A DNA stretch of 64,000 nt from the IMG/VR virus record IMGVR_UViG_3300028654_000009; one strand, given 5' to 3'. Each line of letters opens with the position of its first letter. Position 1 is the stretch's first letter. The notes below the pieces were generated by a model. That model was not told the DNA's origin. It did no database searches and was given only the letters and a program-made list of their open reading frames with translations. The stretch comes from a virus. Shown one piece after another: positions 12,006 to 44,523 of this stretch. Made by a program: the position numbers and the translations under genes.

Positions 12006-14057
12006 TTAGGGCTTGAATGATGGTTTGGGAGCGGAACCTGGAAGAGCGGTAGAGGGCACGCCGGCCTTCACACCTGGAAGCTTGGGGGTCTTGGGGGCTG
12101 CCGGAGGGGCAGCAGCAGGAGCGGCCACAGCGGCAGCGCCAGGGGCCTTGGGCATCGCAGGCTTTGAGGCTGGTAGACCGGCCTTATCGAGGCCAGGCAT
12201 CGACATCGCATCGTTGCCGGTGCCTCCGCCCATGCCCATTTCGTCCTTCTGGGTGCGCTGCCATGGACGCCTGAGAGCCTGCCCCTGCACGCGCTTGGTC
12301 TCGGCGGCATATACGTCACGCCGGCCCTGTACGGCCTTCTTGGCAGGCTTAGGGTCGACGACCTCTTTAGAGGGTTCCTTCTCTGCAGGCTTGGGATCGA
12401 CGACCTCTTTAGAGGGCTCCTTCTCTGCCAAAGCCATACGGGTGCCCATTGCGCGGGTGGCACCAGCGAGAGATGAATGCTCGCTAGGAGCCGACCATCC
12501 CTTGTTGCCGATGCCCTTGAACTTAGCAATCAGCCCCGAGAGGAAGCCTACACCAGCAGCGTGCTTGTCGGCCTTGAGCTGTGCAGCCTCGTCCACCTTG
12601 GGCTTCATTGTGCCCTGGTCGGGATGAGAGGGCTTGCGGAGGAAGCCGCCGGTCGGGATAGGCGCCGAGGTAGGCATGGCCGGGCTTGGCGGAGCACTGC
12701 GCTTAGGCGGAGCGGTGATGCCCGGAAGGCGTGGGCCAGGGGACTGGGTGTGGTCCACGCTCATCTGGGCATAGTCGGCCTTGATAATGCGCTTGCCGTT
12801 ACAAACAGCATCCGACTCGGGCTTATCGTGGGTCACAAGCTCACCGTCCTGGCGAACCTTCGCGTGTGCTCCACAGAGAGAACACTTCTTGGTCTTTGGG
12901 CCGGTATCTTTCTTCTCTGCCTTCTTTGTCACCTTGCCGCCCGAACCCTCTGCTTCAATTACCTTCTCTTTCTTGTCGTCGGGAAGTACGGCGCCCTTGG
13001 TGGGCTTCTCGGTAGCAGACTCAACCTCGGCGATCTCCTTCGAGGCAGGTTTTTCTTCCTTGCGGACGCTGTTGTCAACCGACTGCTTGTTTTCCTCAAC
13101 AGGGGTACTAGCCATGATGCCGCAAGTATGACAAGCGAAGTGATCTCGATTGCCGAGAGAGCCGATGTGGGCATATCTTTCGGACTCGCCACATCCCGGG
13201 CACTGGCGACCCAAAGCCTGGCTGTCAGTCTCGGTTTCGGGATTGCCAAACTCGTCCTTCTTAAACTTGTCCTTAATCATGCCAGCCACATGCTGAATAG
13301 CCGGCTTGGCAGTAGCCAAAGCCACACCCACGCCGTGAGCAACGGCGGACATGTCGGCTTTCTTGAGAGCGACAGCCGCTTCCTTGGCCAGGACAAACTT
13401 TACCTCTTGCTCATGCTTATCCAGAGCTGCACCCAGCGCCTTAGCGAGGCCTTGAGTGATATCTTTGCGAGTGGGTGAATTGTCCATTTTTTGTCTTTCA
13501 ATAGATTGGGTTTGGAGTTGTGGATACAAATTGTGTTTCTTGATCCCCACAGGCAAGGGAGTAGCGCTGTTCAAAGGCGCTTTGTAAAGCTTGTTCTCAT
13601 CGAAATGCAGCCGCACATAGTCAGGGCGCTCTTGGTTGCCAATACTGGTGTAGTAATCCTCTGGCGGCTGGGTCGGATGGTACCCATAGACAGGCAGGCT
13701 AGGATGAAAACTCCCGTCCTTGTCTCCATTAGAGTAAAGCATCTCTGCGTGCTTGTGGCCGCGTCCGAAAACTACTGACTCTTGCCCATAAGCCTTCGCC
13801 AGCCCATACATCTGCTCGCGAGTAGGATTCCGCACCGTAAAGCCAGATTCGGGCGCTCCATAATGGCCCTGGTGTTTTTGGTACTGCAAACCTAACTGCT
13901 GCAGATTCCGCTCTAAAGACGGATTACCTCCCTGAGCCTGCACGGGAAACCTGGGGTTCTCGGCAGTGATCAGCCCGAACGTGCCCGAAGGGTCGAAAAT
14001 GGGATGACTCCGAAGCTCGGGTAGAGGCTCGGAGTAAGTGGGCATGTCCTGTGGCAT
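12006..14057 (-). CDS. multidomain probable inner-head protein: SAM-lyase/DUF3293-like domain, Zn ribbons, low-complexity tail
   Basis: GLITAENP...GHYGAPESGF...AKAYGQESVVF; CPGC..CHTC; many LKKAD/FKKDE/VRKEE/IIKAD/LDKAG motifs. Confidence 0.6.
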   Translation of the reverse strand: MPQDMPTYSEPLPELRSHPIFDPSGTFGLITAENPRFPVQAQGGNPSLERNLQQLGLQYQKHQGHYGAPESGFTVRNPTREQMYGLAKAYGQESVVFGRGHKHAEMLYSNGDKDGSFHPSLPVYGYHPTQPPEDYYTSIGNQERPDYVRLHFDENKLYKAPLNSATPLPVGIKKHNLYPQLQTQSIERQKMDNSPTRKDITQGLAKALGAALDKHEQEVKFVLAKEAAVALKKADMSAVAHGVGVALATAKPAIQHVAGMIKDKFKKDEFGNPETETDSQALGRQCPGCGESERYAHIGSLGNRDHFACHTCGIMASTPVEENKQSVDNSVRKEEKPASKEIAEVESATEKPTKGAVLPDDKKEKVIEAEGSGGKVTKKAEKKDTGPKTKKCSLCGAHAKVRQDGELVTHDKPESDAVCNGKRIIKADYAQMSVDHTQSPGPRLPGITAPPKRSAPPSPAMPTSAPIPTGGFLRKPSHPDQGTMKPKVDEAAQLKADKHAAGVGFLSGLIAKFKGIGNKGWSAPSEHSSLAGATRAMGTRMALAEKEPSKEVVDPKPAEKEPSKEVVDPKPAKKAVQGRRDVYAAETKRVQGQALRRPWQRTQKDEMGMGGGTGNDAMSMPGLDKAGLPASKPAMPKAPGAAAVAAPAAAPPAAPKTPKLPGVKAGVPSTALPGSAPKPSFKP
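12343..12428 (-). repeat. 42-bp tandem duplication (AEKEPSKEVVDPKP x2)
   Basis: Direct repeat visible in DNA and protein. Confidence 0.85.
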
Positions 14058-18216: not shown

Positions 18217-19251
18217 TTAAACCTTGTTGGAAGGCGGAACGGGCTGGGTAGCAAACCCATTCAGCTGGAAGTCCTCGTCGGCAAAAATGCCGTCGGATTC
18301 GTCATCAAAAGCAGAGAAAACCGGCTCAATCTGGATCGACTCAATCCGGTCATTGATAAACTTCGGCCAGCTCTGGCGAACGAACCCCGTCACGTTGACG
18401 AATCGGGTCCAGGCGTTCTCTCCGTTACCAAAGCGGAGGTCCTTGGCAAACTGGCTGCTAGAAATGGTGCTTCGCTCGAACCCTCGGGACTCCAAAAGGG
18501 TCTGCTTGTATCTCAGAAGACAGAACACAACAATCGAGTGGAGCCAGGTCAGGTAGAAAGGGTCTCCGTGGGAATGGGCACCAACCCTGTAGGTCTCCCG
18601 AAAATTGAGTGACTCAACTTGTTGGACCAGCCTGGGATTGTTGCCTCGAATCGTCGCGCCTCGGAAGTCGTCATTGGTACCTATGTCAACCTGGATGATT
18701 TCTCTCCCGATTACGCCTACGATAGGGTACGAAACGCCGGTCTTCGAAATTATCTGCATACGATTTGTCACGAGCAGGGCGTTTGATACGTCCTCTGGGA
18801 GCGTCAGCTGGCCCGTAGTGGGGTCCCAGGCCGTAGGAGTGAAAGGGCCAGCCAGGGCCGGCCAGGTGGCTTCTGAGGTCTCGCTAGGAACGTAGTGGAC
18901 GTCCCCTAGGGTTACGTCGGTCTCAACACTTTCGACCAGCGAAATCGAAATCATGGCGTAGTCGGGACTATCAAACCGATAGTCCATCACGACAGGGATG
19001 TCTGTCCGAAGGAACCAGCGCTTGGCTTGGTCGATCTCTTTTTGGCCGTAGGTTTGGGAGGTCAGGTCGTCGCGACGAAGCGAGGCGAAGCAATAGTCCA
19101 GCAAGTACGGATTAGCTCGGAGGTCCGCGATTGCCTCGACCAGGGCAGTGCGGATTATGATATCGCTCTGGTGGATACCAACAGCTTCGGTGGTATCAAA
19201 ATTCGGTTTGATAACCGAAAGAGACTGGTTGAGGTCTTGGGGGTCAAGCAC
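18217..19251 (-). CDS. putative tail terminator/completion protein
   Basis: Position between neck and sheath genes; late motif upstream. Confidence 0.5.
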   Translation of the reverse strand: MLDPQDLNQSLSVIKPNFDTTEAVGIHQSDIIIRTALVEAIADLRANPYLLDYCFASLRRDDLTSQTYGQKEIDQAKRWFLRTDIPVVMDYRFDSPDYAMISISLVESVETDVTLGDVHYVPSETSEATWPALAGPFTPTAWDPTTGQLTLPEDVSNALLVTNRMQIISKTGVSYPIVGVIGREIIQVDIGTNDDFRGATIRGNNPRLVQQVESLNFRETYRVGAHSHGDPFYLTWLHSIVVFCLLRYKQTLLESRGFERSTISSSQFAKDLRFGNGENAWTRFVNVTGFVRQSWPKFINDRIESIQIEPVFSAFDDESDGIFADEDFQLNGFATQPVPPSNKV

Positions 19252-20168: not shown

Positions 20169-20981
20169 TTAAATCTTCGAGGCTATTCGCTCGATGAGAT
20201 CCGGCGTGATGTGTGACTCGACCTCCTCTAATGCCCAAGCGTATACCGAATCGAAGATGTGAACGGGCTGAAGACCCGGATGGAAGAACCCGTCTGGGTT
20301 CTTGGATGTGGCCACACGAAAGGTTAATACACTTTTTTTAGTGCCCCCAGAAGGTGTAGCCGACTGATACACAGAAACGCCCCTAAGGAACGGTATGCCT
20401 GTCTTGCCCTGCTTAACACCTCCCACTGGTCCGTGACCCTGCCCTGGACCTTCTCCGCTCTTGAGAGGTTTGTCCTCGATGTTGAACGAGTGAATCTTGC
20501 CCATCTTGGGACGGCCTTGTGCGTCCCGCTCGATTTTGGCTAGCGGAATCTTCCGCTTCTTCAGCTCGGCCCGAACGGTATCCACGGTCTCTTTGGAGGA
20601 CTCTGGAGTGTTCGTAGGGCCCTTCCCGGGGCCCACGTGCTGGAATGGTACCACCAGGTACTTATGCCCGTCCTTCGAGGTCTTGGCCGAAGGGCTGTTC
20701 AGCAATGCGTCCAGCATAGAATGCGGCTCCATGCCGTCGTCGATCCATACCGAACCTTGTGCAAGGGATAGGTAGTGCTCCCCGTTGCCTTCGTGGGTAA
20801 GACTCAGGGCTTCCACAAACATTTGCCTACGAGAATGCAGACGTTCGTTTGCTAGTTCTAAAGCTTTGGCGTGTACCTGTATGCTGAGGTCATTGGCGGC
20901 TTGCTCGGCTTCTTGCTTGATGATGTCTGCTAAGTCCTTGAAGCCAGCCAGGCAGCTGAGGTCGATATTGATGTTATACAT
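20169..20981 (-). CDS. neck/tail completion protein
   Basis: In the virion operon; KYLVVPF.H and TFRVATSK....F.HPG motifs typical of myovirus neck proteins. Confidence 0.55.
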   Translation of the reverse strand: MYNINIDLSCLAGFKDLADIIKQEAEQAANDLSIQVHAKALELANERLHSRRQMFVEALSLTHEGNGEHYLSLAQGSVWIDDGMEPHSMLDALLNSPSAKTSKDGHKYLVVPFQHVGPGKGPTNTPESSKETVDTVRAELKKRKIPLAKIERDAQGRPKMGKIHSFNIEDKPLKSGEGPGQGHGPVGGVKQGKTGIPFLRGVSVYQSATPSGGTKKSVLTFRVATSKNPDGFFHPGLQPVHIFDSVYAWALEEVESHITPDLIERIASKI

Positions 20982-23900
20982 TACGGGCTATTCGGCTCCC
21001 TACTTGAGACAGCGTGACTGTTGGCCCCTCCGCCACCCGCGCCTCCGGGCTCAAGTCCCTGAATGAGGCCGGCTGTAACACCTTTCCACCCCACCGTGCC
21101 GTCCGCATGTTGCACCTTCAAGTGTCCATTGTGTAGCGAGCCCACAGGCAGCTCCAGGTCCTTGTGGGTCGGAGGCATGGACTCCTTGTTTAGCTCCTTC
21201 TCGGGCGGGAATTTCTCGTTGGGTTCGATTTCTTCTTTGGCTACATGGTGGGAGCAGTCTGGGCCACAAATCAAAAGGTCGTCCTCCTTCTCGGCCGGGA
21301 ATTCGCCCTTGAGGGTGTATTGGTAGGGCCCATGCCATTTAACGCCCCGGTTATCAACATAGTCGTCTGGCTCTGGGTTGTAACTCATCCCGTGCTTCTC
21401 GGCCAAGGACTGATGAACCCTGTGAGCCATTTCAGAATGGCTGCCTCCTTGAACGTCTTTGATCCCAAGCTTGTTCTTGGCGTGCGAGTAAAGAGCCTCG
21501 TACATGGCCTTCCCCAGACCTCGCCCCCGGAGACTGCTGCTCAGAAAAGAATGGGGGGTCAGCATCCCTTCCCATTTCTCTTTTTCCGCACCTGTGCCTA
21601 GGCTACGGTTGCGATAGTGAACGTCCGAATGGACATCTCCGTCTGTCATATGTTGAGCATCGTTGTGCAGCTCGGCAACGATATGATGGACATTGTACTT
21701 CCCTCCGACTCCATGCCGGCGCTCCTGCACAACCAGGCTGTGGGTCTTGCGCATCTCCTCGGGCAGCAGGTGTGAGTAGTTGTAGTTTCTGGCTACCACC
21801 GTCCCATGGAGGGTCCTGTCCACGTTTTGATACTTACCCACAGGAATGTCCTTGATGGCCTTCTCGACCTTTTGGTCATGACAGCCCTTCGGGCAAAGCA
21901 GAAGCTTTTCTTCGTCAACGTTCGGAGCCAGCTCGGCCTTGAGGGCATACTTATAAGGCATGTGTGAGATGTTCGAGCCATGGATTCCGGAACCGTCGGG
22001 ATTGATAGGATCGACTTTGTAGTCCAGGCCGTGTGTTGCCGCCAAGCTTCGATGTACAGCACTCGCCTGCGCAGAATGCATCCCTCCGGCAACCCCCTCG
22101 ACCCCCAGCTTGTTCTTTGCGTGGGAATACGTGGCTAGATACATCGCCTTCCCGAAGCCTTTCCCGTGGTGGGCCAGATCGAGGTCAGCATGGGGCTCGA
22201 TGTGCTTATTTTTGATATACCCCTGCACATTCCCGACCAACGGATTGTTGGACGATTCGTCGTTGATGTACGTGCTGAGGTAGTTTTTCGAAGGGTTGTG
22301 GCGGACGAACATCTTGAAGTTCGAAGGCGTACCTTGTGGGAGCAAATGGGAGTAGTCGTGTAGGTGGACGTCGTTGCCATTGGCGTCTTGGTAGGTGCTC
22401 ATATGTTTGCCGGTAGGAACGTCGGCGATGGCTTTCTCGATCTTCTGGTCGTGACAACCAGGAGGGCAAAGCAACAAAGTTTCCTCATCATGATCTGGGG
22501 CTAGCTCGCCTTTGAGTTGGTACTGGTAGCCGGCGTAAGGGTAACGTGTGGCCGAGATTTCAGGATCGTCAGAACCGTCCTCGGGACGAAGGACGTAGGG
22601 AACGTGTTCCAGGCCGTGTTTCTTCGACAGAGCGATATGGACCGCTTCTGCTTGTGGAGAATGAGGTCCGCCCTGTACGTGATCGATCCCCGCCACATGT
22701 TTTGCATGGGCGTAAAGAGCCTCATACATAGCTTTACCTAAACCCTGTCCGCGAAATTGCTCGTCTAGATCGGAGTGTGGTTCAAGCCTCGTAAATTTGG
22801 CGAAAGGATCGTACCCCTTAAAGGTTCTGACACTGTTGGGCGGCCGCACGTATCCAGTAACGGCTCCCACATATCTGGGGCGGTCTCGTCCTGGTCTCGT
22901 CAATCTCGCCACTATCCGCTCTTTGCCGTTTTCATTGTTTTGGAAAGAATGATGAACGTGGAGCGACAGGCCCTGCTCTTTTTGTTCTGGCGTCAAAAGA
23001 TGGCCGTAATCAAACTTCTTCTGAGTTACCGGGTCACCTGAATCATCGTCACCGTTAGGAAATGTGGTTTCCCCTTGAAACTTGCCCGGCTTCAGGTCAG
23101 AGATCGCTTTCTCGATCTTCTGGTCGTGACAGCCGGGCGGACAGAGCAACAGAGCCTCTTCATCATGATCGGGGGCCAGTTCATCTTTGAGTTGGTAATG
23201 GTAGCTATCATACGGGTACTGCTCCAAAGGCAGACCGAATCCGCTCTTGGGGTTTCTTTTCTTTGAAACGTAGTTTAGCCCCATTTCACCGGCTAGCGAT
23301 CGATGAACCCTGTCCGCCGCCGCTGAGTGTTCCCCTCCTACGACATGGTTCACCCCCAAAGTATGATGGACATGAGCATAGAGGGCCTTGTAAGCCGCCT
23401 TGCCCAGCCCCTTGCCACGATATTCCTTCTCTAACTGGGAGTGGGGCTCTAGGTATGGCTCCCCTTGGAGTTGATCTTGGAATTCGTACTCGGCATTTGT
23501 GGACGGATTAATGTGCCCATGGGCTCCACCGAGATTCTGCTGCACCCCGTAGTTGGATTTGCTCAGCCTTGCCTCGACCATAGATGGGAATTGTTTGTGC
23601 CCCTCCTTTCTCTGATGCACCTTCAGCGTAAGCCCCATCGAGCGCTGGGACGGGGTCAAAAGGTGGTTGTAGTCATAGACTTGGTTTACGATGTTTGTTT
23701 CAGGGATCGGTCGGTCTTCTTCATGGGGACCCGGAGAGATATCAGAGATAGCCTTCTCGATCTTCTGGTCATGGCAGCCAGGAGGACAAAGCAGCAGGGC
23801 TTCCTCATCATGATCTGGCGCTAACTCGCCTTTGATCTGGTAGTCGTAGTCCATATATGGATAACGCTGTACATGTTCGTCGTCCGGGTCTTCACCGTAT

Positions 23901-26278
23901 GCTTCCCTTTTTTCTGGGAAGTACCACAGCCCGTGTGCAACTGCCAAGGCTCGATGAACCTTAGAAGCGTCTTCTGAATGGACTCCCCCGGTTACGCGAT
24001 CGACTCCAGCTATGTGTTTAGCGTGCGTATATAACGCCTCATACATTTTTTTACCCAACCCCTGACCACGGTAGCTTGGTCCTAGAGAAGAATGGGGTTC
24101 TATAGAGCCTTCTACAATGTTCGCGTGTACCTGTCCCACACTACGTAACGGTGACGATGTTTCTGGCTGCCATGACCCACTCCCTGTGCTGTGATATACC
24201 CGAGATTTAATCTCGTCCTGCCGCCCAGGATGTACCATGTGCGACACTATCAGTTTGTAGCCCTGTTTTGTGTGTTCCGGGGTTAACATATGACTATAAT
24301 CATAGTTCTGCTGGGTAGAGCCTCTGGAGTTCAAAGGTGTGGGCTCCCCGACCGTCTTACCCGGCTTCAGGTCGGCGATAGCCTTCTTCAGCCCCGCCCG
24401 AACCACGTACGCCGGCAGGTGTGTCACGCCAGCGGCCTTAGCCGCCTCCACGCGGTGTGTCCCGTCCTTTACGGACCACGCCCCTGGGTTGCCAGGAGCG
24501 ACCACGATAGGGGGAACCTCGTCGCCAGCTCGGAGCATTTTGTGGTAAAGGGAATACCGGTCTTTATTGGCAGCCCCTCCACTGTTGCCCCCCTCTAGCA
24601 AAGCGACGGGCACCATAATCCGCTTCAGAGACTTGGTGTCGCCGTTGGTATAGTGACTAGCTACCGACGCCAGGTAGTTCTGGTCGAATGCTTGGCGGTC
24701 TGGGTGGTTCTTGCTGGGGATTTTTAGAGCCGACGTACCCCAGTCATCGGACGTCCATACTTTTGGGCGTTTTTCAGCCTTCTCCAATTCTTGGTCTCCT
24801 GTCTGGAGACCTCTCGCCAGCCCCACCACCGATTGAACCAAAGAAAGAATCGACTTGTACGTCTCGGGGAACTGCCCCTTCAGTTGGGTAATGACCGGTA
24901 ACTGCCCCTTCAGTTGGGTAAGGGACTCGGCCACACGCTGCTTAAGACTCTCCATCTCTTCCGAATTGCGAGCCGCAGACGCCCGGTCTTGCTTGTCCTG
25001 GGAGCCGGCCAGCTCATGGAATTGGTCTTCGGCGTCCTTGGCCTGGTGACTCATTTCGGGGGCGGGGCCCTGGTCGGCAATCGAATGTGCGACCTCTCCT
25101 TCGGAGTGTTCTTGCGTCTGAACGTGCGGGTGGACCTTCTTGGGGGGCGCCACCCCATGCTGGTGGCCGCCATGGGCGGCCGAGCCTTCGTTTTCGGCTT
25201 TGGTCATCTTAGGGATGGGCACCGTGGAGCTAGTAACGAAAAACTTGGGGTCGGAATTGACCTTGCCGTACATCGCCGTATGTGGGGGTCGCTTGGGTGG
25301 CGTTATAAGTTTGCGGATGTCGTGATCTGTAAGATCGCCATCGCTCTCGCCCATGTGGCCGAAAGCCGGGATCACAGGATTGCCAAATTGATGGTGCGTA
25401 GGGGCATACTTCATACGCCCCAAAAACATGTGCTGGTGTGAGCCAAACGGATGGTTGGTATACCCATGAGCCAAAATAACATTGGTACTCAACTTCGGGT
25501 TCTCATTAAGCCTGTCACGCAAATCGACTTCCAGTGGCGGGCCCTTCCAGCTTCCCTCTTTCCTTCCCCATTCGCCATCATCGAAAGCCATGCCCCCAAA
25601 TGGATTACCGTAAGCCTTGTTTATGGTATGAAGCTCGTCTAGACCGTGCGAGGGGTGCTCAAAGTCCTTGTGGTACTGGTCGTTGCCGGCCGATTTCCAT
25701 CCCTGCATCTCCAAAATCCCCGCAGCCTTCTCAGTGTCGGGGTGACCTGCCGGTAAGTAGGTCGTCGCGCGATACCTAGTTGCAGGCTGAGTGAATAGAG
25801 GGTCCTGGTCCCCAAAACTCTTGGCCAGCCCAATCTGGGGGCTCAGGTACTCGTCGGCAATTTTCTCGTCTTCCGTCTTGGGCTTATTCGCCTCGGCTAG
25901 GGTTTGGGGGACCGTTTCGTCGAAGAGCCGGACTCTATCGCGACCTTCTATTTTTCCTACCAAAAGGGCTTGCCCAGCTTCAGACATACGTCTCCCGATG
26001 CCGATAGTCAAAGTGGCTCCGGTTGCAGAATGATACTTCTGGCGGACGGATTCGACTTCTCCTAGTGCCGAGACCGGGATCTCGGCTAGATAACACTCAT
26101 CTCCCCCTTCCTCGACGACAGAGCCGCCGTGCTCAAGAGCCCAAGACACAAGAATCTGATTGCCAGCCTCGATCCTCTGGTTGATTCGGCGCACCTCTTC
26201 AACGTCATCTCTCTGGATGCTAGCTCCGATGAGATACCCGATTCGATCACCGTCGCAGGCTAGGAACAGTTTATCCAT
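20981..26278 (-). CDS. polyvalent protein: mCpol-like cyclase, ParB/Srx domain, five tandem GNAT acetyltransferase domains
   Basis: DGDRIG...GGDE; PPIVV...DGTHRVEAA; five (R/H)GxG(L/F)GK motif-A copies; ATG at 26278 (ORF track starts 26293). Confidence 0.8.
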   Translation of the reverse strand: MDKLFLACDGDRIGYLIGASIQRDDVEEVRRINQRIEAGNQILVSWALEHGGSVVEEGGDECYLAEIPVSALGEVESVRQKYHSATGATLTIGIGRRMSEAGQALLVGKIEGRDRVRLFDETVPQTLAEANKPKTEDEKIADEYLSPQIGLAKSFGDQDPLFTQPATRYRATTYLPAGHPDTEKAAGILEMQGWKSAGNDQYHKDFEHPSHGLDELHTINKAYGNPFGGMAFDDGEWGRKEGSWKGPPLEVDLRDRLNENPKLSTNVILAHGYTNHPFGSHQHMFLGRMKYAPTHHQFGNPVIPAFGHMGESDGDLTDHDIRKLITPPKRPPHTAMYGKVNSDPKFFVTSSTVPIPKMTKAENEGSAAHGGHQHGVAPPKKVHPHVQTQEHSEGEVAHSIADQGPAPEMSHQAKDAEDQFHELAGSQDKQDRASAARNSEEMESLKQRVAESLTQLKGQLPVITQLKGQFPETYKSILSLVQSVVGLARGLQTGDQELEKAEKRPKVWTSDDWGTSALKIPSKNHPDRQAFDQNYLASVASHYTNGDTKSLKRIMVPVALLEGGNSGGAANKDRYSLYHKMLRAGDEVPPIVVAPGNPGAWSVKDGTHRVEAAKAAGVTHLPAYVVRAGLKKAIADLKPGKTVGEPTPLNSRGSTQQNYDYSHMLTPEHTKQGYKLIVSHMVHPGRQDEIKSRVYHSTGSGSWQPETSSPLRSVGQVHANIVEGSIEPHSSLGPSYRGQGLGKKMYEALYTHAKHIAGVDRVTGGVHSEDASKVHRALAVAHGLWYFPEKREAYGEDPDDEHVQRYPYMDYDYQIKGELAPDHDEEALLLCPPGCHDQKIEKAISDISPGPHEEDRPIPETNIVNQVYDYNHLLTPSQRSMGLTLKVHQRKEGHKQFPSMVEARLSKSNYGVQQNLGGAHGHINPSTNAEYEFQDQLQGEPYLEPHSQLEKEYRGKGLGKAAYKALYAHVHHTLGVNHVVGGEHSAAADRVHRSLAGEMGLNYVSKKRNPKSGFGLPLEQYPYDSYHYQLKDELAPDHDEEALLLCPPGCHDQKIEKAISDLKPGKFQGETTFPNGDDDSGDPVTQKKFDYGHLLTPEQKEQGLSLHVHHSFQNNENGKERIVARLTRPGRDRPRYVGAVTGYVRPPNSVRTFKGYDPFAKFTRLEPHSDLDEQFRGQGLGKAMYEALYAHAKHVAGIDHVQGGPHSPQAEAVHIALSKKHGLEHVPYVLRPEDGSDDPEISATRYPYAGYQYQLKGELAPDHDEETLLLCPPGCHDQKIEKAIADVPTGKHMSTYQDANGNDVHLHDYSHLLPQGTPSNFKMFVRHNPSKNYLSTYINDESSNNPLVGNVQGYIKNKHIEPHADLDLAHHGKGFGKAMYLATYSHAKNKLGVEGVAGGMHSAQASAVHRSLAATHGLDYKVDPINPDGSGIHGSNISHMPYKYALKAELAPNVDEEKLLLCPKGCHDQKVEKAIKDIPVGKYQNVDRTLHGTVVARNYNYSHLLPEEMRKTHSLVVQERRHGVGGKYNVHHIVAELHNDAQHMTDGDVHSDVHYRNRSLGTGAEKEKWEGMLTPHSFLSSSLRGRGLGKAMYEALYSHAKNKLGIKDVQGGSHSEMAHRVHQSLAEKHGMSYNPEPDDYVDNRGVKWHGPYQYTLKGEFPAEKEDDLLICGPDCSHHVAKEEIEPNEKFPPEKELNKESMPPTHKDLELPVGSLHNGHLKVQHADGTVGWKGVTAGLIQGLEPGGAGGGGANSHAVSSREPNSP
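21231..24392 (-). repeat. five ~190-220 aa GNAT repeats, each followed by a conserved ELAPDHDEEALLLCPPGCHDQKIEKA-type linker
   Basis: Linkers at approximately 23748-23833, 23102-23188, 22427-22513, 21854-21940 and 21231-21310. Confidence 0.9.
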
Positions 26279-26861
26279 TGGGGAGCCTCGCACCCTTACG
26301 GCTGTTTTCTTCCACAGAAAGCGGCCTCAGGTTTGTATAGTGATTGACTCTCAAAAATCCTTCCCTATCATTCTCTAGGTCTACGGAAGACAGAGGTATG
26401 ATGTGGTCGATGCTCCAGACTGTTCCGTAGTTCTCCCAGGTCCACCCGGATTTGAATTGGGATTCAAGGTGGACCCTTGCTTGTTCTCCCGTGCACCCCA
26501 TATCTCTAACCGACGATCCCGCCCTGCTCCCCCTTTTGATAGCTTTCACAATTCTAGATCGGAGGTTGCATAGTATCCTAAATCCGGGGTCTATTTTTTT
26601 TCGAGCGATACGATATTGGTTGTTACTGTCAATCTCTTTTTTACGATTTCGCTCGTAGTGTTTCTTCCTGTTCGCTACAACCTGTTCCGGATTCTCTTCT
26701 TTCCACCGTTTCACACTAAGATATACTGTTCCCGAATTTTTGATCCGATATTGTTTGGCATAAAGGGCCGCACAGAGTTTGCAAGGATTTCCTTTTTTGC
26801 TAAATTCAATGATAGGCTTCTCGACCTTACATTTCGAACAAATCTTCTGTTGCGGCACCAC
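26271..26861 (-). CDS. HNH homing endonuclease
   Basis: CSKC/CKLC fingers; WSIDHIIP...NHYTNLRPL...N..KG; AT-rich relative to flanks. Confidence 0.8.
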   Translation of the reverse strand: MVPQQKICSKCKVEKPIIEFSKKGNPCKLCAALYAKQYRIKNSGTVYLSVKRWKEENPEQVVANRKKHYERNRKKEIDSNNQYRIARKKIDPGFRILCNLRSRIVKAIKRGSRAGSSVRDMGCTGEQARVHLESQFKSGWTWENYGTVWSIDHIIPLSSVDLENDREGFLRVNHYTNLRPLSVEENSRKGARLPNG

Positions 26862-28277: not shown

Positions 28278-28529
28278 ATGCGCATCCATGCCGAGAAGAC
28301 CGCCGAACGAGAAACCTTCGCTTACACCTATTTCCTGGACAACCCCCAGGGCTCCGTCAAGGAGCTGAACGACAAGCTGTCAGCCAAGGACGGCCGTCGC
28401 CTGAATCTGGGGCGGGCGTACGCAATCAAGGCCGCTGCTGCCCAGCGCTTGGGCATTCCTCCCAAGGTGTCGACCAAGAAGGTCAAGCTGTACCCAATCG
28501 GGACCTCCCAGAGCGAGGATACTAAGTAA
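28278..28529 (+). CDS. hypothetical protein
   Basis: AAGGAG RBS; 83 aa. Confidence 0.65.
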   Translation: MRIHAEKTAERETFAYTYFLDNPQGSVKELNDKLSAKDGRRLNLGRAYAIKAAAAQRLGIPPKVSTKKVKLYPIGTSQSEDTK

Positions 28530-29272
28530 TGAGCTACCCCGGCCTCGTGCTGGCTGGCCATGCTGGGGCCGGGAAAGATACTGTCGGACATTTCATCGCT
28601 GACCGCTTTGACGGGACCTGTACCGCCTTTTCGGCACCCCTGAAAATCCTCGTAAACAACCTGTTCGGGTTTAGCTACGAGGTCCTGTATGGCGAGTCCG
28701 AGCTACGGAATCTCATTGACCCGTGGTTCGCCACACCAGACGGGCAATCTCACATCGGCAGCCTTCGAACCGGCGAAGACTATTTCCGGAAGGCGGTAGG
28801 CTTGCCACTGAAGGGTGGGCCCTTGCTTCACCAGGTCATTGAAAGCGAGATCAAGCCCTTCATTTCAAAAAAGGGGGGCCTGAGCGCTCGCAAGGCTCTG
28901 CAGGCGGTAGGTACCGAGTGGGGACGCGCCATCCAGACCAACGTGTGGGCCGACGCGGCCATGAGGGACTCAGACCTATGCCTCCATGATGGAGCCCGGC
29001 TCGTGATTCTGACGGACGGGCGCTTTGTGTCTGAGCTGGTGGCAGCAAAGGCCAGGGGATTCAAAATCTGCAAGGTCTTTCGGCCAGACTACGAAAAGGT
29101 GGCTCACCGCTCCGAAACCGAGCTAGACACCGTCCCGGATTGGTGGTTCGATTACATCATCCGCAACGACGGAGACCAGGAATCGCTACTTTTGAAGGCG
29201 TACAGCCTTGGGCTGCACCTGACCAGGTGGTACTACTCACGTGGCTCTTACGAGATGGGAGAATACCGATGA
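28529..29272 (+). CDS. deoxynucleoside monophosphate kinase
   Basis: G.AGAGKDTV, F..PLK, R..LQ..GTEWGR, TDGRF..E, H.SE. Confidence 0.9.
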   Translation: MSYPGLVLAGHAGAGKDTVGHFIADRFDGTCTAFSAPLKILVNNLFGFSYEVLYGESELRNLIDPWFATPDGQSHIGSLRTGEDYFRKAVGLPLKGGPLLHQVIESEIKPFISKKGGLSARKALQAVGTEWGRAIQTNVWADAAMRDSDLCLHDGARLVILTDGRFVSELVAAKARGFKICKVFRPDYEKVAHRSETELDTVPDWWFDYIIRNDGDQESLLLKAYSLGLHLTRWYYSRGSYEMGEYR

Positions 29273-30384
29273 AAGCATTTCCGACTCTGTACAAGCGTTC
29301 GAACACGGGGGCCATTCAACAATGGTCCATTGCCGTCGCAGGCCCGGCAATCACCGTGACCCACGGCCAGGTCGGGGGTAAGCTGCAGACGGGGATTGAT
29401 ATCATCAAGGAGGGCAAGAACCTGGGCAAGGCCAACGCCACGACCGCTGAAGAGCAGGCGGAGGCGGAGGCACTCGCCAAGTGGACCAAGCAGAAGGAGA
29501 GGAATCGCTACGTCGAAGACATTTCTCGTGCCGAAGGTGGCGAAACGGACGCGGCCGGCGGAATCCCTCCGATGCTGGCCCAGCCCGAAGAAGCCGGGAT
29601 GAAGAAAATCAAGTTCCCTGCCCATATCCAGAGGAAGTACAACGGCAATCGCTGCTTGGCGGTGATCGAAAACGGAGAGGTCTCTCTCTGGAGCCGAAAG
29701 CAAAAGCGGATTCTCGGCATGCCCCATATCGAAGCCGCCTATCGAGAGGCTTTCGCTAGGCTTGAAGGGGTCACTATTCTCGATGGCGAGCTTTACCGCC
29801 ATGGCTGGTCGCTCCAGAAGATCAGCGGTTTTTGCCGCAAGGAAGGGACCAAACCGGGCTTCAGGCAAATCAAGCACGTCGTTTACGACCTGCCATCTTC
29901 AGACGAGCCGGAACACAAGCGGAGAGCCGACCTCGCTTTTCTGTTTGCGGCAGTCGACTCCGATTGTCTGGAGCTGGCCCCTACCGAGGTCATCACGATG
30001 AGGGAAGCTGTCAAGCCCACGCACGACGCATATGTGAGCGAAGGATATGAGGGAGCCATTCTACGCAACCTCGAAGGGAAGTATGCGGCCGGCAAGAGGT
30101 CGTATGACCTTGTCAAGGTGAAAGACTTCAAGGAACTTGAGTTCCCCATCGTTGACATCTCCGAGGGCCGGGGTAAGTTCGCAGGTAAGGCGATTTTCAC
30201 CTGCCGGGCCGAGAACGGCAAGGAGTTCGATTGTTGCGCCCCAGGCACTCTCAAGGATCGGGCAGAGTTCTTCGAGCAGGGGACCGCGCTCATCGGGAAA
30301 CTGCTGACCGTGAAGTTCTTCGAGCGCACCGAAGACGGCATGCCCTCCCATGGGGTCGGACTTGTGGTAAGAGACTATGAATAA
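29269..30384 (+). CDS. ATP-dependent DNA ligase
   Basis: QRKYNGNR (KxNG), LDGELY, YD, YEGAILR, LVKVK; ATG at 29269. Confidence 0.92.
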   Translation: MKAFPTLYKRSNTGAIQQWSIAVAGPAITVTHGQVGGKLQTGIDIIKEGKNLGKANATTAEEQAEAEALAKWTKQKERNRYVEDISRAEGGETDAAGGIPPMLAQPEEAGMKKIKFPAHIQRKYNGNRCLAVIENGEVSLWSRKQKRILGMPHIEAAYREAFARLEGVTILDGELYRHGWSLQKISGFCRKEGTKPGFRQIKHVVYDLPSSDEPEHKRRADLAFLFAAVDSDCLELAPTEVITMREAVKPTHDAYVSEGYEGAILRNLEGKYAAGKRSYDLVKVKDFKELEFPIVDISEGRGKFAGKAIFTCRAENGKEFDCCAPGTLKDRAEFFEQGTALIGKLLTVKFFERTEDGMPSHGVGLVVRDYE

Positions 30385-31135
30385 GGACTCGCTGGGCGAC
30401 CGCATGAAGCGGTACGAAAATGTCACCCGAAACTACCTCGTCAGGCGCACGCCGGTCATTGTCCGGCTGGACGGGAAGGCGTTCCACACACTGACCGCCA
30501 AACATTGTGTAAAGCCTTTCGACGACCACTTCCACCATGCAATGGAGAAGACCTCCATTCGTCTTCTGGAGGAGGTCCAAGGGTGTACGTTCGTTTACAC
30601 ACAGTCCGACGAAATCAGCCTGCTGCTGTTTGACTACCAAAAGCTCGATACGCAGGCATGGTTCGACAACAACATCCAGAAAATGGTGTCCGTCTCGGCC
30701 TCCATCGCTAGCGTCACGTTTTCGACCGTATTCGGGGAGCAAGGGTTCTTCGATGCCAGGGCCTTCAACCTTCCCGAGGCTGAGGTCTGCAACTACTTCG
30801 TATGGCGACAGAACGACGCAATCAGGAACAGCATCCAGGCTGTAGGCCAGGCCCATTTCAGCCAGAAGGAGCTTCACAAGCTGAACGTGGACCAAATCAA
30901 GGCCAAGCTGCTGAGCGAGCATGGCGTAAACTGGGACTTGCACATCAAGACCAAGTTCAAGCGCGGCCTGGCGGTGTCTCGGGTGCCCAATATCGTCGAC
31001 AGCGGCGTAACCGCGAATTTTGCTCACTGGATCGCCCTAGGTTATCCGAACTACAAACCTGTAGTTGACGAAGAAATCCCCATATTCTCTCAAAATCGCG
31101 AGTTCGTGGAACGCCACCTCCCAAAAACAATCTAG
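30377..31135 (+). CDS. Thg1-like tRNA(His) guanylyltransferase / 3'-5' polymerase
   Basis: RMKRYE, RLDGKAFH, YTQSDEISL, FDAR, YFVWRQ.DA.RNS. Confidence 0.93.
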   Translation: MNKDSLGDRMKRYENVTRNYLVRRTPVIVRLDGKAFHTLTAKHCVKPFDDHFHHAMEKTSIRLLEEVQGCTFVYTQSDEISLLLFDYQKLDTQAWFDNNIQKMVSVSASIASVTFSTVFGEQGFFDARAFNLPEAEVCNYFVWRQNDAIRNSIQAVGQAHFSQKELHKLNVDQIKAKLLSEHGVNWDLHIKTKFKRGLAVSRVPNIVDSGVTANFAHWIALGYPNYKPVVDEEIPIFSQNREFVERHLPKTI

Positions 31136-32612: not shown

Positions 32613-33831
32613 TTTGCTTACCAAACTTAGCCCTTACGGCCTTGAGCCAGTTGACGCCTGAGTGGGCAGAATTGACTCTTTGATCGATCCCACTGCCCGG
32701 CACCACATTGCCGCGTTTATCGAACTTAGCTCCTCTATCAAACCTGTCAGCAAACGCTTTTGACGCTTCTTTGATAGAGTCCCCAGGGACCTCTCTGTCC
32801 TCTCCTTGATTAGCGTGAGGTCTTTTGTCTTTGACTGCTCCCCACGAAGCTTCATTGTTCACCCATTCCTTAGGCGGTTCCTGTTTGTGCGGCAATACAA
32901 CCGAGGTTCTAACCTGGGAACGGAATTTTGCCGGCCGAACACCTGCGCGCCTGTCGATCCTATTCTCTAAATGGTTGGCAACGTTCTCCTGTCTTTGTGT
33001 TTCGCGATGCTCGAAGTCCGGATTGGATCGGCTATTGTGTTTGGTCGGCCGTGCATGATCGGTAAGATATTGTTGATGTTGCTCCACAGTCTTATCACTA
33101 GGAGTCGTCATGGCATGTGCTGTTTCGTGGGCGACATCGAAATCGTTACTGTAAGGCAATTTGTTGCCACTAGCGCGAGGGAACCCCTTGGAAGCAGAAA
33201 AAGATTTACCGGCAGAGCGCACCGGTTGCAGGCCGATTGAACGAGCATACTGAACTCTTCTTCGATCGGCATCAACCGGCGTGATGTTCGAGGTCTGTTC
33301 CCGCACGTTCTTGGACTTCTCTAGGTCTTCTTCGGCCTTCTCCACTTTCTCGTGTTCTTTCAGCTTGGTCTTGAGGTTCTCCAGACCTTCCATGAACATC
33401 GCAATGCGGTCGTCCTCGGGGGACTTCTCTTCTTCGTCTTCTTTGGTATGGAACAAAGAGTCCGAAGGGTGAGCTTTGAAGTCATACACCTTCGGTCCCG
33501 AGGTCTTGATGCGATCGACGATGTCCTGGTGGGGCTTATCGAAGGGGTCGAATCCCAGATGCTTGGCTGCAGCTGCGTACGCTTCACCGTGTTGCTTGGC
33601 CGCATCGTTTTCGCCGGCAGCATGAGCAGCGCGGATGCCCTGCAGGTGGTGAGCGGCGACATCGAGAGCGCGGTCCTTGAGGTAATGTTCGTGGGCCTTG
33701 GCTTCCGCAAGGTCTTTGGGCATCTTGTGCCTGAGTTCGAGAATGGCAGCGTGCGCTTCCAGCTCGGGCTCGTGGTCTTTGCTGTGGATTGGATACTTGT
33801 CCAACCAGGCGTGGTGCGATTCTTTAGCCAT
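32605..33831 (-). CDS. probable virion protein with HExxH motif
   Basis: TAATG-coupled ATG at 33831; VEKAEEDLEKS motifs, then VAHETAH...E. Confidence 0.6.
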   Translation of the reverse strand: MAKESHHAWLDKYPIHSKDHEPELEAHAAILELRHKMPKDLAEAKAHEHYLKDRALDVAAHHLQGIRAAHAAGENDAAKQHGEAYAAAAKHLGFDPFDKPHQDIVDRIKTSGPKVYDFKAHPSDSLFHTKEDEEEKSPEDDRIAMFMEGLENLKTKLKEHEKVEKAEEDLEKSKNVREQTSNITPVDADRRRVQYARSIGLQPVRSAGKSFSASKGFPRASGNKLPYSNDFDVAHETAHAMTTPSDKTVEQHQQYLTDHARPTKHNSRSNPDFEHRETQRQENVANHLENRIDRRAGVRPAKFRSQVRTSVVLPHKQEPPKEWVNNEASWGAVKDKRPHANQGEDREVPGDSIKEASKAFADRFDRGAKFDKRGNVVPGSGIDQRVNSAHSGVNWLKAVRAKFGKQNG

Positions 33832-34580
33832 TAGGAAGCCTTCCCCACATTCTTGAGCAGGACATAGACATCCTCCGGCGACCACTGCAATTCCAGAGCG
33901 AACCCTCCGTCGACCTTCGTCGCCTTCACTAATTTGGACAGGTCGGCCAGGCACGCGCACCCCGTAAACTCTGACTTCTGCACCTGGGACTTCCCACAGG
34001 TGGGACAGGCCTTCGATGCTTCCTTCTCTGAAAGCTTCAGCTTGGTCTTTTCAGGAGCTGCTGGTGGTTTCACGCTTGGGAGCTTGGGCGTCTTGGCTGC
34101 TGGCTTTGCGCTGGCCCCCGGGCCTGCCTTAGGCGCAATATTAGTAGCCGGCGTAGCGGCTGTCGCCGGGATCGCTCCAGCCGACACACCGGTCCCTGCC
34201 GCGCCGGCTTTCGTCTGGGCCTTCACTAGGGCAGCGAGCGTAAGCCCCAGCTTGTGAAGGGGCCCTGCCCCACCGGCAAGAGAAATAGCGGGCCCCTGAA
34301 GAGCCTTGCAAATGACGGCGACCGAATGTGCTTCGTCAGCGTTTGAAAACACGTAATCGACTTCATTGATATTGGCCACACCGCTGAAGCCTTCTTCCGA
34401 CTTTGAAATCACGAACTGCGTACAAGAATACTCCTGGCCCTGTCGCAAGGTCCGCAGAAACGAGGACGCGCTCTTTGCCAGAACAAAACCACCCACCTCG
34501 GACTCGGACTTTAGCAAAGGCTCAATGGCCTTCAGGCCTGAAGGGCCGAGAATTTCTAGCAAAAAGGTGCGCATGTTCAT
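33831..34580 (-). CDS. probable head-associated protein (Zn ribbon, many K|S/A motifs)
   Basis: LLKSE, LAKSA, ISKSE, LVKAQ, VQKSE; CPTC..CAC; late motif upstream. Confidence 0.6.
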   Translation of the reverse strand: MNMRTFLLEILGPSGLKAIEPLLKSESEVGGFVLAKSASSFLRTLRQGQEYSCTQFVISKSEEGFSGVANINEVDYVFSNADEAHSVAVICKALQGPAISLAGGAGPLHKLGLTLAALVKAQTKAGAAGTGVSAGAIPATAATPATNIAPKAGPGASAKPAAKTPKLPSVKPPAAPEKTKLKLSEKEASKACPTCGKSQVQKSEFTGCACLADLSKLVKATKVDGGFALELQWSPEDVYVLLKNVGKAS

Positions 34581-40289: not shown

Positions 40290-40489
40290 TACTCGACCTC
40301 GACCGCCAGGTCCTGTGCGGTATGGATGCGTCGCAGCACGTCTTGGATGGAGGTGGGGTTGTGGCCGGCATTGCGCGGGTGTGTCATCGCCCAAGGAAAC
40401 TCCAAAAGAAGCTGGGCGACGATCTGCTCGGGCTCCCCCCGGAAGGTTTCGACTTCCTGAGACCAAATATTTGTAATCTTGACCGTCAT
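40289..40489 (-). CDS. small protein resembling the N-terminus of the downstream kinase protein
   Basis: TAATG coupling at both ends. Confidence 0.65.
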   Translation of the reverse strand: MTVKITNIWSQEVETFRGEPEQIVAQLLLEFPWAMTHPRNAGHNPTSIQDVLRRIHTAQDLAVEVE

Positions 40490-43400: not shown

Positions 43401-44523
43401 GGATATTCTCCCTGGTTGGGTCTTCCCTGAAACGCCTTTGATAATCCGGGTCAGAAGCGACTTGCCACCTTGCTACGGCCTGCTCGCCTTGGGGAGAAAG
43501 GTCTTGAAAGGGATCGTAGCTGGGGAGGGCTTTGTTTAGGCCAGCGCCGCTATGGGCGATCGCGTAGGGGCTGTCTCTCGGCAACCTCTCCAAATGGGCT
43601 CCCCCATTAGGGACCACGGCCGACACGGACCCTTCGTCTTCCGCTACATTCCGATAATAATAACCGCGCTTGGCGGCCCCTCTTTTTATGGCGCCCGCCA
43701 TATAACCGTTGGCCCTAAAGTCATCGTGGGCCGACATGGGAGTGTTCGACATAGGGCCCACGATCCTGACAGGGAAGATATCTGGCTTGTGGTTTGGCGA
43801 TATAGATGTCCCGTCTCCAAAGGTGGGCATCGCGGTAGCGTAATGATCTTCTGCCATAGGCCCGCTATTGTATCCGGTCCTCTGGACGCCCCTAGCTTGC
43901 AAGGTCTTGTGGCCGGCGAGCAAGGTCTTCCCATATTCTCTTGTGCCGTCCCAGCTGCCCTCTGCCGGAACACCGATTCTTGCATGCAAAGCCTGCTCTG
44001 CAGCCTTCCGGGTCCCGATATGCAGCCCCACTTTGCCGCCAACTAGCTCACCGCTCGGACTCCCATGCCACCACACCTTTTCCCTGTGGCCGTCGTTAGT
44101 GGCTTTGGCCAGGCCTTCGCCCTCTTCAACGCTGAACAACTGGCGCAGGAGGTTAGCCTCACCAGGAGGCCCTTCGAGGTTTTCCCACACGTCCCTGGGA
44201 ATGCCTTTGAGCACCGGAATCCACTTCCAGGCGCCATCCTTGACTTCCTCGTCAGGGTCATGGGTCGAATGGGCGTCACCTGAGCAGAGAGCCGAGAACA
44301 GGTGGATCATTGCGCCGGACGGATTAACTTCAGATTTGATATGCGTCAGTGACTTAGGGCGCAGGCCGGTCTCCTCGTACAGCTCCCTGGCGGCAGCTAC
44401 CGTTTTGTCTTCGCCCTCGTTGAGACCCCCACCTGGCATCGTCCAGGTGCCACGGTCGGAGCGCTTCCCGAGCAAAATCTCGCCTTTCCCGTTGGTGACG
44501 AGTATGAGAGAAACTTGCTTCAT
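40489..44523 (-). CDS. polyvalent protein: Nudix, two ADP-ribosyltransferase-like domains, helical region, two PI3/4-kinase/HipA-like domains
   Basis: Nudix box GGGLNEGE...ARELYEETGL; WWHGS..GLHIG; HRAMS..TSWT..ETIV; two DRH..N...IDHG motifs. Confidence 0.8.
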   Translation of the reverse strand: MKQVSLILVTNGKGEILLGKRSDRGTWTMPGGGLNEGEDKTVAAARELYEETGLRPKSLTHIKSEVNPSGAMIHLFSALCSGDAHSTHDPDEEVKDGAWKWIPVLKGIPRDVWENLEGPPGEANLLRQLFSVEEGEGLAKATNDGHREKVWWHGSPSGELVGGKVGLHIGTRKAAEQALHARIGVPAEGSWDGTREYGKTLLAGHKTLQARGVQRTGYNSGPMAEDHYATAMPTFGDGTSISPNHKPDIFPVRIVGPMSNTPMSAHDDFRANGYMAGAIKRGAAKRGYYYRNVAEDEGSVSAVVPNGGAHLERLPRDSPYAIAHSGAGLNKALPSYDPFQDLSPQGEQAVARWQVASDPDYQRRFREDPTRENIPRMEGPARVRGLHKLSGKTQVKVHPDGTRSFLMHRAMSPAEAQSAVGPAHVSHDRKTSWTPIVGAPPGELYSILHNFKREYKGPITSAWIHQNDIHAMLPMWGAVHPRAEDNAQWAKENDFSHSTKPAGPGYQSPHWETIVGPHKSQLATPEEHEKAFAEDEATLDGRINDRVKTPAFSWKGKKDLKDYVKKHEPSEAAHLLEHPDPIERSLALKMDSTDPTDVANAILDPDHNVYKTAFYHPLSNLALRVLAHSTRDHEGNPVFHRHEDLMADPRLTDEHLHHMIEATQDDPSLPIQVAAAHIEKVRGHSKYPKLRMAKAVIDNANDFAEEVKAPHLSNPAAEEPMPHHHYSVEAYRQGMAAHVKPERSSGIYDHADKTIDKLSRGGDPKMIYKLPVKGYAKAQKFIVKPYSKHGFMPGWAENTNQAMYHAAGIGRLHQETFTAPHGYGDWMVPAQVIRAEPAKDIGNTSFKRDHLPTNQADIRKIQLMDFLIDNQDRHSENLLVRPDKTLLAIDHGSAFSYAAGHNRPGSFPQDRDYQIPGLNSWDARHVLPWYDENKLPIQEAFEKRLENVTDPRAKYNLRAGFQKRINWLNKRVEEHRRGRDPKWKAALEPLLGDDGMMSKALAGGKDQLMGVFGHQGFDATLGAKMIHNSLMKAHPAAHQNDVNTFEKNLNDSNNTHEPTMVWEGRGPDGKGDIEPKAVYQHGGKRYMVKPASNQQTPLSAWNELTNQAMYHAGGIGHLHQKVHATQLNIPGGKGNIQERLHNPALVVHMEPGVKSLHQAFSDVGSGYEPGRVADRPEAREAMRRIAIMDYLTGNSDRHSNNLMIQPNGLPLAIDHGGLFDGGHRPVMDHSRLLTHNAALVMGGLPGENPEAWKGTWDWFDKNKGAMLDKFREHANMIPEHYNEGAQEVIPGFETNRFNKKQVMADAEKRFQDIDQYRKPKDKKWYDPLGEQGEQPEYESLGALE

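Follow-up and report, generated by a model that had tools for sequence, protein, structure and literature searches.

The 64,000-nucleotide stretch of IMG/VR virus record IMGVR_UViG_3300028654_000009 analysed here (the window) represents the structural region of a myovirus that is large (about 170 kb), uncultured and Mx1-like. On its minus strand it carries a gene for a large multi-domain protein that begins with a minimal CRISPR polymerase (mCpol) domain. The gene, for a late "polyvalent" protein, occupies 20981..26278, and its open reading frame (ORF), listed as 20981..26293(-), has 1770 codons when counted from a GTG at 26293, the position from which residues are numbered throughout. The true start is likely the ATG at 26278, giving 1765 amino acids (aa); a Shine-Dalgarno-like GAGG stretch is found upstream of this ATG, which overlaps the stop of the preceding, endonuclease VII-like gene (ATGGATAA), and both the Atlas record and an identical fragment in a public protein library (P0002) start at the same methionine. 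The stop codon overlaps in turn the ATG of the next gene (TAATG), and these overlaps with the neighbours at both ends indicate a tightly coupled late operon.

The original prediction had placed a phage-encoded mCpol-like cyclase, at the head of a polyprotein, in the interval 25860-26278, which corresponds to residues 6-145. The palm motifs on which it was based are real and are encoded on the minus strand, with LFLACDGDRIG at residues 9-19, GGDE at 63-66 and TLTIGIG at 94-100, and the LAKS site is located at residues 156-159 (25817-25828), just beyond the end of the interval. A plus-strand reading of the same interval was discarded, as that frame is full of stops. The gene is phage-encoded, lying in a structural module with sheath, capsid, portal and terminase genes, and the domain is indeed the head of a polyprotein, forming the extreme N-terminus of a multi-domain product with recurrent LxK[AS] joints.

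The mCpol module spans residues 6-158 (25820..26278, minus strand), with a palm at about residues 8-125 followed by two helices with a conserved E..K...EYL, and D14, D16 and G63-G64-D65-E66 are intact. It matches the Pfam family mCpol (PF18182) with 43.4 bits against a cut-off of 26.4 (E 5e-11) over residues 10-122, corresponding to profile positions 1-112 of 114; as a sequence match, this is far beyond chance. All 39 viral relatives that were scanned match the same profile at E<=0.001. The Cas10 palm2 profile reached 20.7 bits on the domain, below its cut-off of 27, and the GGDEF profile (PF00990) gave no match in the Pfam scan, the motif reading GGDEC here. A phmmer search against all PDB chains found only two distinct sequences, both of them mCpol (OptS of 9mnr/9pd0 and the mCpol of 9nwn), with E-values of 2e-3 and 3e-3. 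The AlphaFold2 (AF2) model of the domain, built on 55 relatives, has a predicted local distance difference test score (pLDDT) of 92, and its best Foldseek matches are OptS/mCpol structures (9mnr, 9pd0 and 9nwn; TMt 0.82-0.89 and root-mean-square deviation (rmsd) 1.4-2.3 over 116-121 columns), OptS superposing with TMt 0.89 and rmsd 1.6. GGDEF domains and Cas10 make up a second tier of matches, and among viral structures the top match is the uncharacterised product of an uncultured phage.

In the active site of KpOptS, Asp6 and Asp57 have been singled out as catalytic (PMC12657218), and in the phmmer alignment they fall, ungapped, on D14 and D65 of the phage domain. Ten positions (D14, D16, G64, D65, E66, Y87, G98, G100, K114 and G117) show no variation in 55 of 55 relatives, whose identity with the mCpol domain of the window is only 28-47%. 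Six of these, D14, D16, G64, D65, K114 and G117, are unchanged in the window copy and in all 44 active-type loci, with E or Q at position 66; the first set of viral loci was found by a pattern that includes K114 and G117 and is hence biased towards active-type copies. The adenine-contacting Asn34 of KpOptS is replaced by Glu in the window copy (position 42), and across the family this position is mostly Asp or Glu. A homodimer model of the domain reached an ipSAE of 0.63 against 0.00 for the best control, a score that may reflect memory of the solved OptS dimer and is thus a measure of likeness more than a proof of binding; the mark applied is passed by 20 of 30 proteins whose solved structure is a pair and by 1 of 23 whose solved structure is a single chain. 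Between runs at least 70% of contacts agree, the partner has a pLDDT of at least 78, and the GGDE hairpins of the two subunits lie opposite one another. Judged by its profile match, fold and catalytic residues, the N-terminal domain is a genuine mCpol palm cyclase with predicted catalytic competence, and the original prediction, which was to fall if the fold proved not to be a palm cyclase, stands in this respect. Catalytic activity of the module is considered very probable.

The domain is widespread. An exhaustive phmmer search returned 831 representative clusters at E<=1e-3, of which 590 reach E<=1e-10. This N-terminal mCpol is present in at least 590 clusters defined at 50% identity, which may be a new observation. 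A comparison of 43 viral relatives shows that the core of the family consists of three segments: the mCpol domain, a helical segment (residues 400-510, approximately) and the C-terminal 57 or so residues (20987-21157). The ParB and acetyltransferase load between them is a variable insert, found also in the related loci L004, L006, L010, L012 and L017, of which L010 has the same mCpol/ParB-like/GNAT set with stronger GNAT scores.

The remaining modules of the polyprotein, all on the minus strand, were delimited by the [LIVM]-x-K-[AS] motif. Residues 159-365 (25199..25819), bounded by LAKS and MTKA, form a module without an assigned function, for which Pfam, PHROG and Atlas gave no lead and one identical fragment was the sole relative found. 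Residues 366-505 (24779..25198) comprise a His-rich spacer and the conserved helical segment, delimited by BLASTP of family members onto residues of about 400-510 and by the family consensus, and end at LEKA. A ParB-like domain with the motif DGTHRVEAAKAAG follows at residues 506-637 (24383..24778), ending at LKKA; it is assigned by PHROG 1033 (ParB-like, E 4e-6), whereas Pfam ParB_N matches it weakly, the L010 relative being below the cut-off as well (E 2e-4, 21.9 against 26.3 bits). The rest of the protein is taken up by GNAT-like repeats. Repeats 1-4 (residues 638-847, 848-1062, 1063-1287 and 1288-1478; 21860..24382) were recognised by Pfam Acetyltransf_1 (21.9 bits, cut-off 20.7), PHROG 1249 and alignment of the repeats, and repeat 5 with the C-terminal tail (residues 1479-1770; 20984..21859) by repeat alignment and BLASTP of family members. 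The five repeats share 31-51% identity with one another, and each keeps the R/H-G-x-G-[LF]-G-K acetyl-CoA loop. Repeats 1-4 are each closed, and joined to the next, by a linker ELAPDHDEE.LLLCPPGCHDQK[IV]EK|A. The Cys/His-containing part of this linker, LLLCPPGCHDQK[IV]EK (within 21860-24382, minus strand), is present in nearly identical copies while the repeats themselves are only 31-51% identical, which indicates that the linker is under a separate constraint, perhaps as a metal knuckle or as a context for protease recognition.

The [LIVM]-x-K-[AS] motif is present at all 8 module joints. The first of these, L-A-K-S at residues 156-159 on the minus strand, is a putative prohead-protease site that would free the mCpol module, and the motif is conserved at this place in homologues: in 99 of 148 representative homologues it occurs 75-105 residues behind the GGDE, mostly as EYL.K[AS][DE], with an expectation of 0.16 per protein. 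In the slightly wider form [LIVMF]-x-K-[AS], the polyprotein has 14 occurrences against 3.7 expected from shuffled sequences. An excess was likewise found in other proteins of the window, namely the scaffold-like protein (9 against 1.1), a 249-aa protein (8 against 1.5), a 683-aa protein (7 against 2.3) and the protein P0152 (9 against 3.5), and the count was zero in the terminase and two neck proteins. The motif is also found near the N-termini of head proteins, at residues 10-13 in the capsid protein and, in the portal, at 27-30 and 43-46.

A candidate for the enzyme that cuts these sites is encoded in the same module. P0152 (52170..55892, minus strand) is a protease-headed polyprotein of 1240 aa, with a counterpart of 1239 aa in Myxococcus phage Mx1 annotated as "putative prohead protease". 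Its N-terminal residues, about 180 of them, are assemblin-like: the AF2 model of the first 200 residues has a pLDDT of 88, the best 50 PDB matches by Foldseek are all herpesvirus assemblins (E from 5e-4, TM about 0.4), and among relatives H57 is invariant and H113 and S138 are near-invariant. P0152 is the likely cutter of the LxK[AS] sites, and the cleavage of the mCpol polyprotein at these motifs is considered likely.

At its C-terminal end P0152 also has a GGDEF domain (residues 1053-1157; 36.4 bits, cut-off 23.8), a second palm cyclase within the same module. GGDEF is found as well in about 30 of 79 relatives of P0152, and Mx1 encodes the cyclase as a gene of its own; two nucleotide cyclases among the head genes are therefore frequent in these phages. 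A third multi-enzyme protein (40489-44523, minus strand; 1344 aa) has an N-terminal NUDIX hydrolase, LAKA at residue 138, and then Fam20C-like and PI3/PI4-kinase-like domains, its Mx1 counterpart of 1479 aa being annotated as NUDIX hydrolase. The 683-aa protein (12006-14057, minus strand), which has a weak DUF3293 match and CxxC pairs, and the 249-aa protein (33831-34580, minus strand) are both rich in LxK[AS] and functionally unassigned, and may be further processed cargo.

Among 50,697 phage records, Mx1 (OR576727) was the only match. Mx1 and the window share a gene order of terminase, portal, protease-headed protein, nucleotide cyclase, capsid, NUDIX polyprotein, mCpol-fold protein, neck genes and sheath, and at the DNA level no similarity of the window to known phages, Mx1 included, was found. 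Many related viral contigs are 160-182 kb long, as is Mx1. In the window, this module includes the terminase (60922-62979), portal (57795-59918), MuF-like protein (56107-56886), scaffold-like protein (49486-50442), capsid protein (48052-49443), NUDIX and kinase polyprotein and tail sheath (9456-11993). Directly downstream of the mCpol polyprotein gene, and translationally coupled to it, lies a conserved neck-region gene for a 270-aa protein (phrog_16819; 20169..20981, minus strand), which has no Pfam match and has homologues in 44 of 44 related loci; a second conserved neck-region gene (18217-19251) has homologues in 42 of the 44. The mCpol domain is conserved at 37-38%, compared to 42% for the sheath and 39% for the tube. 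The polyprotein gene is a core member of the neck/tail module of Mx1-like phages, and its product shares the cut motif with the head proteins; a MuF-like gene is present in the module, and the polyprotein is fused neither to MuF nor to the portal.

Other genes of the window include one for a Thg1-like tRNA-His guanylyltransferase (101 bits), a third member of the palm superfamily in this region, located beside genes for an ATP-dependent DNA ligase and a deoxynucleoside monophosphate kinase (30377-31135, 29140-30384 and 28529-29272, all on the plus strand); an RNA ligase gene is found at the start of the window (992-2083, minus strand). Together these genes may represent a set for tRNA and nucleic-acid repair. 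A nucleoside 2-deoxyribosyltransferase-like gene (phrog_355, E 2e-10; 46297-46842, minus strand) lies just downstream of the capsid gene. There are also two probable homing endonucleases, an HNH-type ORF (phrog_3339, E 4e-71; 4974-6464, minus strand) and an ORF with weak LAGLIDADG and helix-turn-helix matches (51386-52261, plus strand), the latter placed on the opposite strand, in the space that separates the protease polyprotein from the head gene after it.

The mCpol enzymes described so far are relatively rare guard enzymes of bacteria and archaea, partnered with S-2TM-beta, CARF-TM or SAVED membrane effectors and less often coupled or fused to HEPN or Csx1-type RNases (PMC12657218, PMC13577387). 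The account given in the original prediction, in which synthases such as OptS constitutively make cyclic dinucleotides that hold a toxic effector off until phage sponges or nucleases deplete them, agrees with the literature on Panoptes (PMC12657218, PMC12657230, PMC13577387). As in OptS/mCpol of these systems (KpOptS, 9mnr and 9pd0; mCpol, 9nwn), the phage domain has the PF18182 family assignment, the minimal palm fold, the two catalytic aspartates, a catalytic unit of about 120 aa and a predicted symmetric dimer. In contrast to the stand-alone OptS, it is encoded by a phage, within a structural module, at the N-terminus of a 1765-aa multi-enzyme protein. The full GGDE motif is present in the phage family and nearly absent from the Kp and Vn OptS (PMC12657218), and, compared to KpOptS, the phage domain has the Glu in place of Asn34 and two additional C-terminal helices that end in a conserved EYL.K[AS], with about 22% identity overall. 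GGDEF diguanylate cyclases and the Cas10 palm also share the palm superfamily, the GGDE hairpin and acidic metal ligands, but the phage mCpol lacks the extra helices of GGDEF and the other domains of Cas10.

The gene is not part of a Panoptes system carried by the phage, an interpretation that was rejected: no S-2TM-beta, CARF-TM or SAVED effector partner is present at the locus, and the gene is a core gene of the structural module. Panoptes (types I and II) is a two-gene operon that pairs mCpol with a nucleotide-binding membrane effector (S-2TM-beta OptE or CARF-TM), whereas the neighbours here are the endonuclease VII-like gene and the gene for the 270-aa virion-module protein, which recur in 44 of 44 related loci. 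Panoptes is also found in bacterial or archaeal genomes, often beside CBASS (antiphage signalling systems based on cyclic oligonucleotides), whereas the window holds sheath, capsid, portal and terminase genes and its relatives are on viral contigs of about 170 kb. No phage mCpol is described in the Panoptes papers and the October 2026 review, where mCpol appears in bacterial and archaeal systems only; the original 2015 mCpol paper (Burroughs et al.), which lay outside this comparison, may mention phage copies.

In its domain architecture the whole protein corresponds to the polyvalent proteins, of which ParB-like and GNAT domains are typical components and in which GGDEF and RelA/SpoT domains, possibly interfering with host nucleotide signalling, have been reported (Iyer, Burroughs, Anantharaman and Aravind 2017, PMC5512222). 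Like these, the product of the window combines several unrelated enzymatic domains in one polypeptide encoded with virion genes, with mCpol, a ParB-like domain and five GNAT repeats where two unrelated enzymatic domains are the minimum, and the protease-GGDEF and NUDIX-kinase proteins of the same module fit the concept as well. It differs from the polyvalent proteins of that study in three respects: mCpol is absent from the domains reported there (0 occurrences); the modules are split by prohead-protease-like LxK[AS] sites instead of a built-in peptidase domain; and the MuF-like gene stands apart, with no MuF or portal fusion, while five tandem GNATs are an unusual load. The Mx1 protein (WNM70340) differs in turn from that of the window in its length of 468 aa, the lack of the ParB and GNAT load and the loss of the catalytic residues.

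Here it is proposed, with moderate confidence, that the domain is the active synthase module of a protease-processed virion cargo polyprotein, acting as a dimer on nucleoside triphosphates (NTPs) in the host. The polyprotein would be made with the structural proteins and then incorporated into the prohead, where the assemblin-type protease would cut after the Lys in [LIVM]-x-K|[AS]. This would free the 153-residue mCpol module, the unassigned module, the helical core, the ParB-like domain and the five GNAT acetyltransferases. The freed pieces would exit the capsid together with the DNA, and in the host the mCpol dimer would condense NTPs to a cyclic di- or oligonucleotide that disturbs nucleotide second-messenger signalling. 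For the packaging and injection of the pieces, the chances appear evenly balanced. A specific anti-defence purpose, such as the silencing of Panoptes-type guards, is rather doubtful.

Several observations weigh against this proposal, and one of them comes from relatives with a degenerate domain. In a second set of genomes, Mx1-like and ascertained independently through the protease gene, contigs of at least 120 kb were searched for the domain, and an mCpol fold was found at the N-terminus of the orthologous protein in 14 of 14. Intact DxD and GGDE are present in 8 of these near-complete relatives, whereas in the other 6, as well as in Mx1, the fold is kept and the catalytic residues are lost. 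The degenerate copies are those of L104 (SAD...SGTE), L105 (SVD...GTS), L106 (ESD...SAGR), L108, L109 and L110, and that of Mx1 (WNM70340; L001 11998-13404) reads WSID...GAVG. That the degenerate proteins are orthologues follows from their helical and C-terminal segments, which match those of active-type members with E-values of 1e-9 to 1e-43. In the tree of the domain they appear in at least three places, on long branches, which makes their placement uncertain and leaves the number of losses unsettled. A genome with a dead mCpol (G002) was compared with the active-type G008 and G009, but at 60 shared genes, 43% identity and 103 and 120 differential ORFs these are too distant to reveal a partner lost together with the activity. 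Because relatives keep the domain after losing the active site, the fold must also have a non-catalytic role. The conserved role of the domain would accordingly not be catalysis, and the enzyme appears dispensable for this type of phage. That the fold is kept while the catalytic residues are lost may itself be a new point.

Further points on the same side concern the chemistry and the processing. With Glu at the Asn34 position, the substrate of the phage mCpol, and with it the base used, may differ from that of OptS. Of the 14 motif matches in the polyprotein, 4 lie inside the GNAT acetyl-CoA loop (LGKA/FGKA), and the four linker sites are paralogous copies, hence not independent. For the protease, the fold match is a modest one (E 5e-4, TM about 0.4), and the head of P0152 is backed by no sequence profile from Pfam, PHROGs or the PDB phmmer search. 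For cleavage, packaging and injection, the evidence consists of motifs and the position of the gene. In some phages, moreover, head proteins carry N-terminal propeptides, which are removed and do not stay in the capsid; if this applies here, the mCpol module would not be injected.

These losses bring in the possibility that the mCpol fold is mainly a structural or assembly domain, serving as an N-terminal dimerisation, capsid-targeting or propeptide module, with a chemistry that is irrelevant or vestigial in the window as well. Its presence in all 14 near-complete relatives, in orthologous proteins, irrespective of the catalytic losses in 6 of them and Mx1, is what such a role would produce, and so are the position of the gene among equally conserved neck/tail genes and the predicted symmetric dimer. 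It does not account for the lineage of the window, where D14, D16, G64, D65, K114 and G117 do not vary while the remainder of the domain has diverged to 28-47% identity, the lineages with lost residues being on much longer branches. Both features indicate that catalysis is under selection in the lineage of the window, and a purely structural role is regarded as quite unlikely. These results are best read as showing catalysis to be an optional extra, strictly maintained in this lineage and apparently dispensable elsewhere. The enzyme could, on the other hand, act late and in the cytoplasm, unpackaged, adjusting host second messengers, lysis timing or superinfection exclusion, in which case the LxK[AS] motifs of the polyprotein would not be protease sites. 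The late operon is compatible with this, and phage GGDEF proteins without a known virion link are found in Bacillus phage G, Bacillus phage SP-15 and Bordetella phage CN1. But the motif lies exactly at module borders and is common to the scaffold-like, capsid and portal proteins, and its conserved position in 99 of the 148 homologues is hard to explain without a common protease in the prohead, so that a late cytoplasmic role is considered very unlikely.

A more specific form of the cargo proposal, put forward in the original prediction, concerns the purpose of the product, which would refill or spoof the Panoptes signal or serve as a decoy. The phage could make the guard nucleotide of the host (2'3'-c-di-AMP or cA3), keeping OptE or CARF-TM silent while immune signals are depleted, or swamp its host with nucleotides that are non-cognate and block CBASS or type III CRISPR effectors. 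Among solved structures the nearest relatives are Panoptes synthases, the active site has remained intact, and the same logic was proposed by Iyer et al. for GGDEF domains in polyvalent proteins (PMC5512222). The loss of catalysis with retention of the fold in several related lineages is what is expected of an optional, host-dependent conflict function, a pattern that suits such a function without proving one. This idea has to contend with an identity to OptS of only about 22% and a different base-contacting residue, and with the ORFs scanned in the window, among which no sponge, Acb1-like phosphodiesterase or ring nuclease was found; early action by the product of a late gene would also require packaging, which is itself only putative. 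A counter-defence reading in its pure form is further complicated because the domain is core to a virion-module protein and its catalytic residues are lost in the 6 relatives and Mx1. An anti-Panoptes or decoy synthase is held to be an unlikely, if plausible, explanation.

In its widest form, the cargo proposal extends to the clade: a large group of environmental myoviruses would pack an active mCpol, and often a GGDEF cyclase too, as cut cargo, and after injection along with the DNA a phage-made cyclic nucleotide, abundant in the host from the first minute, would silence Panoptes-type guards or jam CBASS or type III CRISPR signalling. This is a speculative extension with a low probability. 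If true, it would be the first virus-encoded immune-type nucleotide synthase used as a counter-counter-defence, and lineages in which the domain has decayed to a pseudo-enzyme, as happened repeatedly, would be those without the target in their hosts.

To date, mCpol has been studied only in the bacterial Panoptes guard, and here, with an intact active site, it heads a virion-module polyprotein in a phage clade with at least 590 clusters at 50% identity. The relatives that have the fold and lack catalysis, including the only cultured one, can serve as natural controls; because its mCpol-like domain is degenerate, Mx1 is unfit for testing the enzymatic function and would be the wrong test model. 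The window further shows that prohead-protease sites, with cleavage being putative, can make the capsid a carrier of interchangeable enzymes, here mCpol, ParB, five GNATs, GGDEF, NUDIX and kinases. If the mCpol module is active and delivered, phages would make immune nucleotides, besides destroying or sponging them, and this would be a new and directly testable move in the arms race around CBASS, Panoptes and type III CRISPR.

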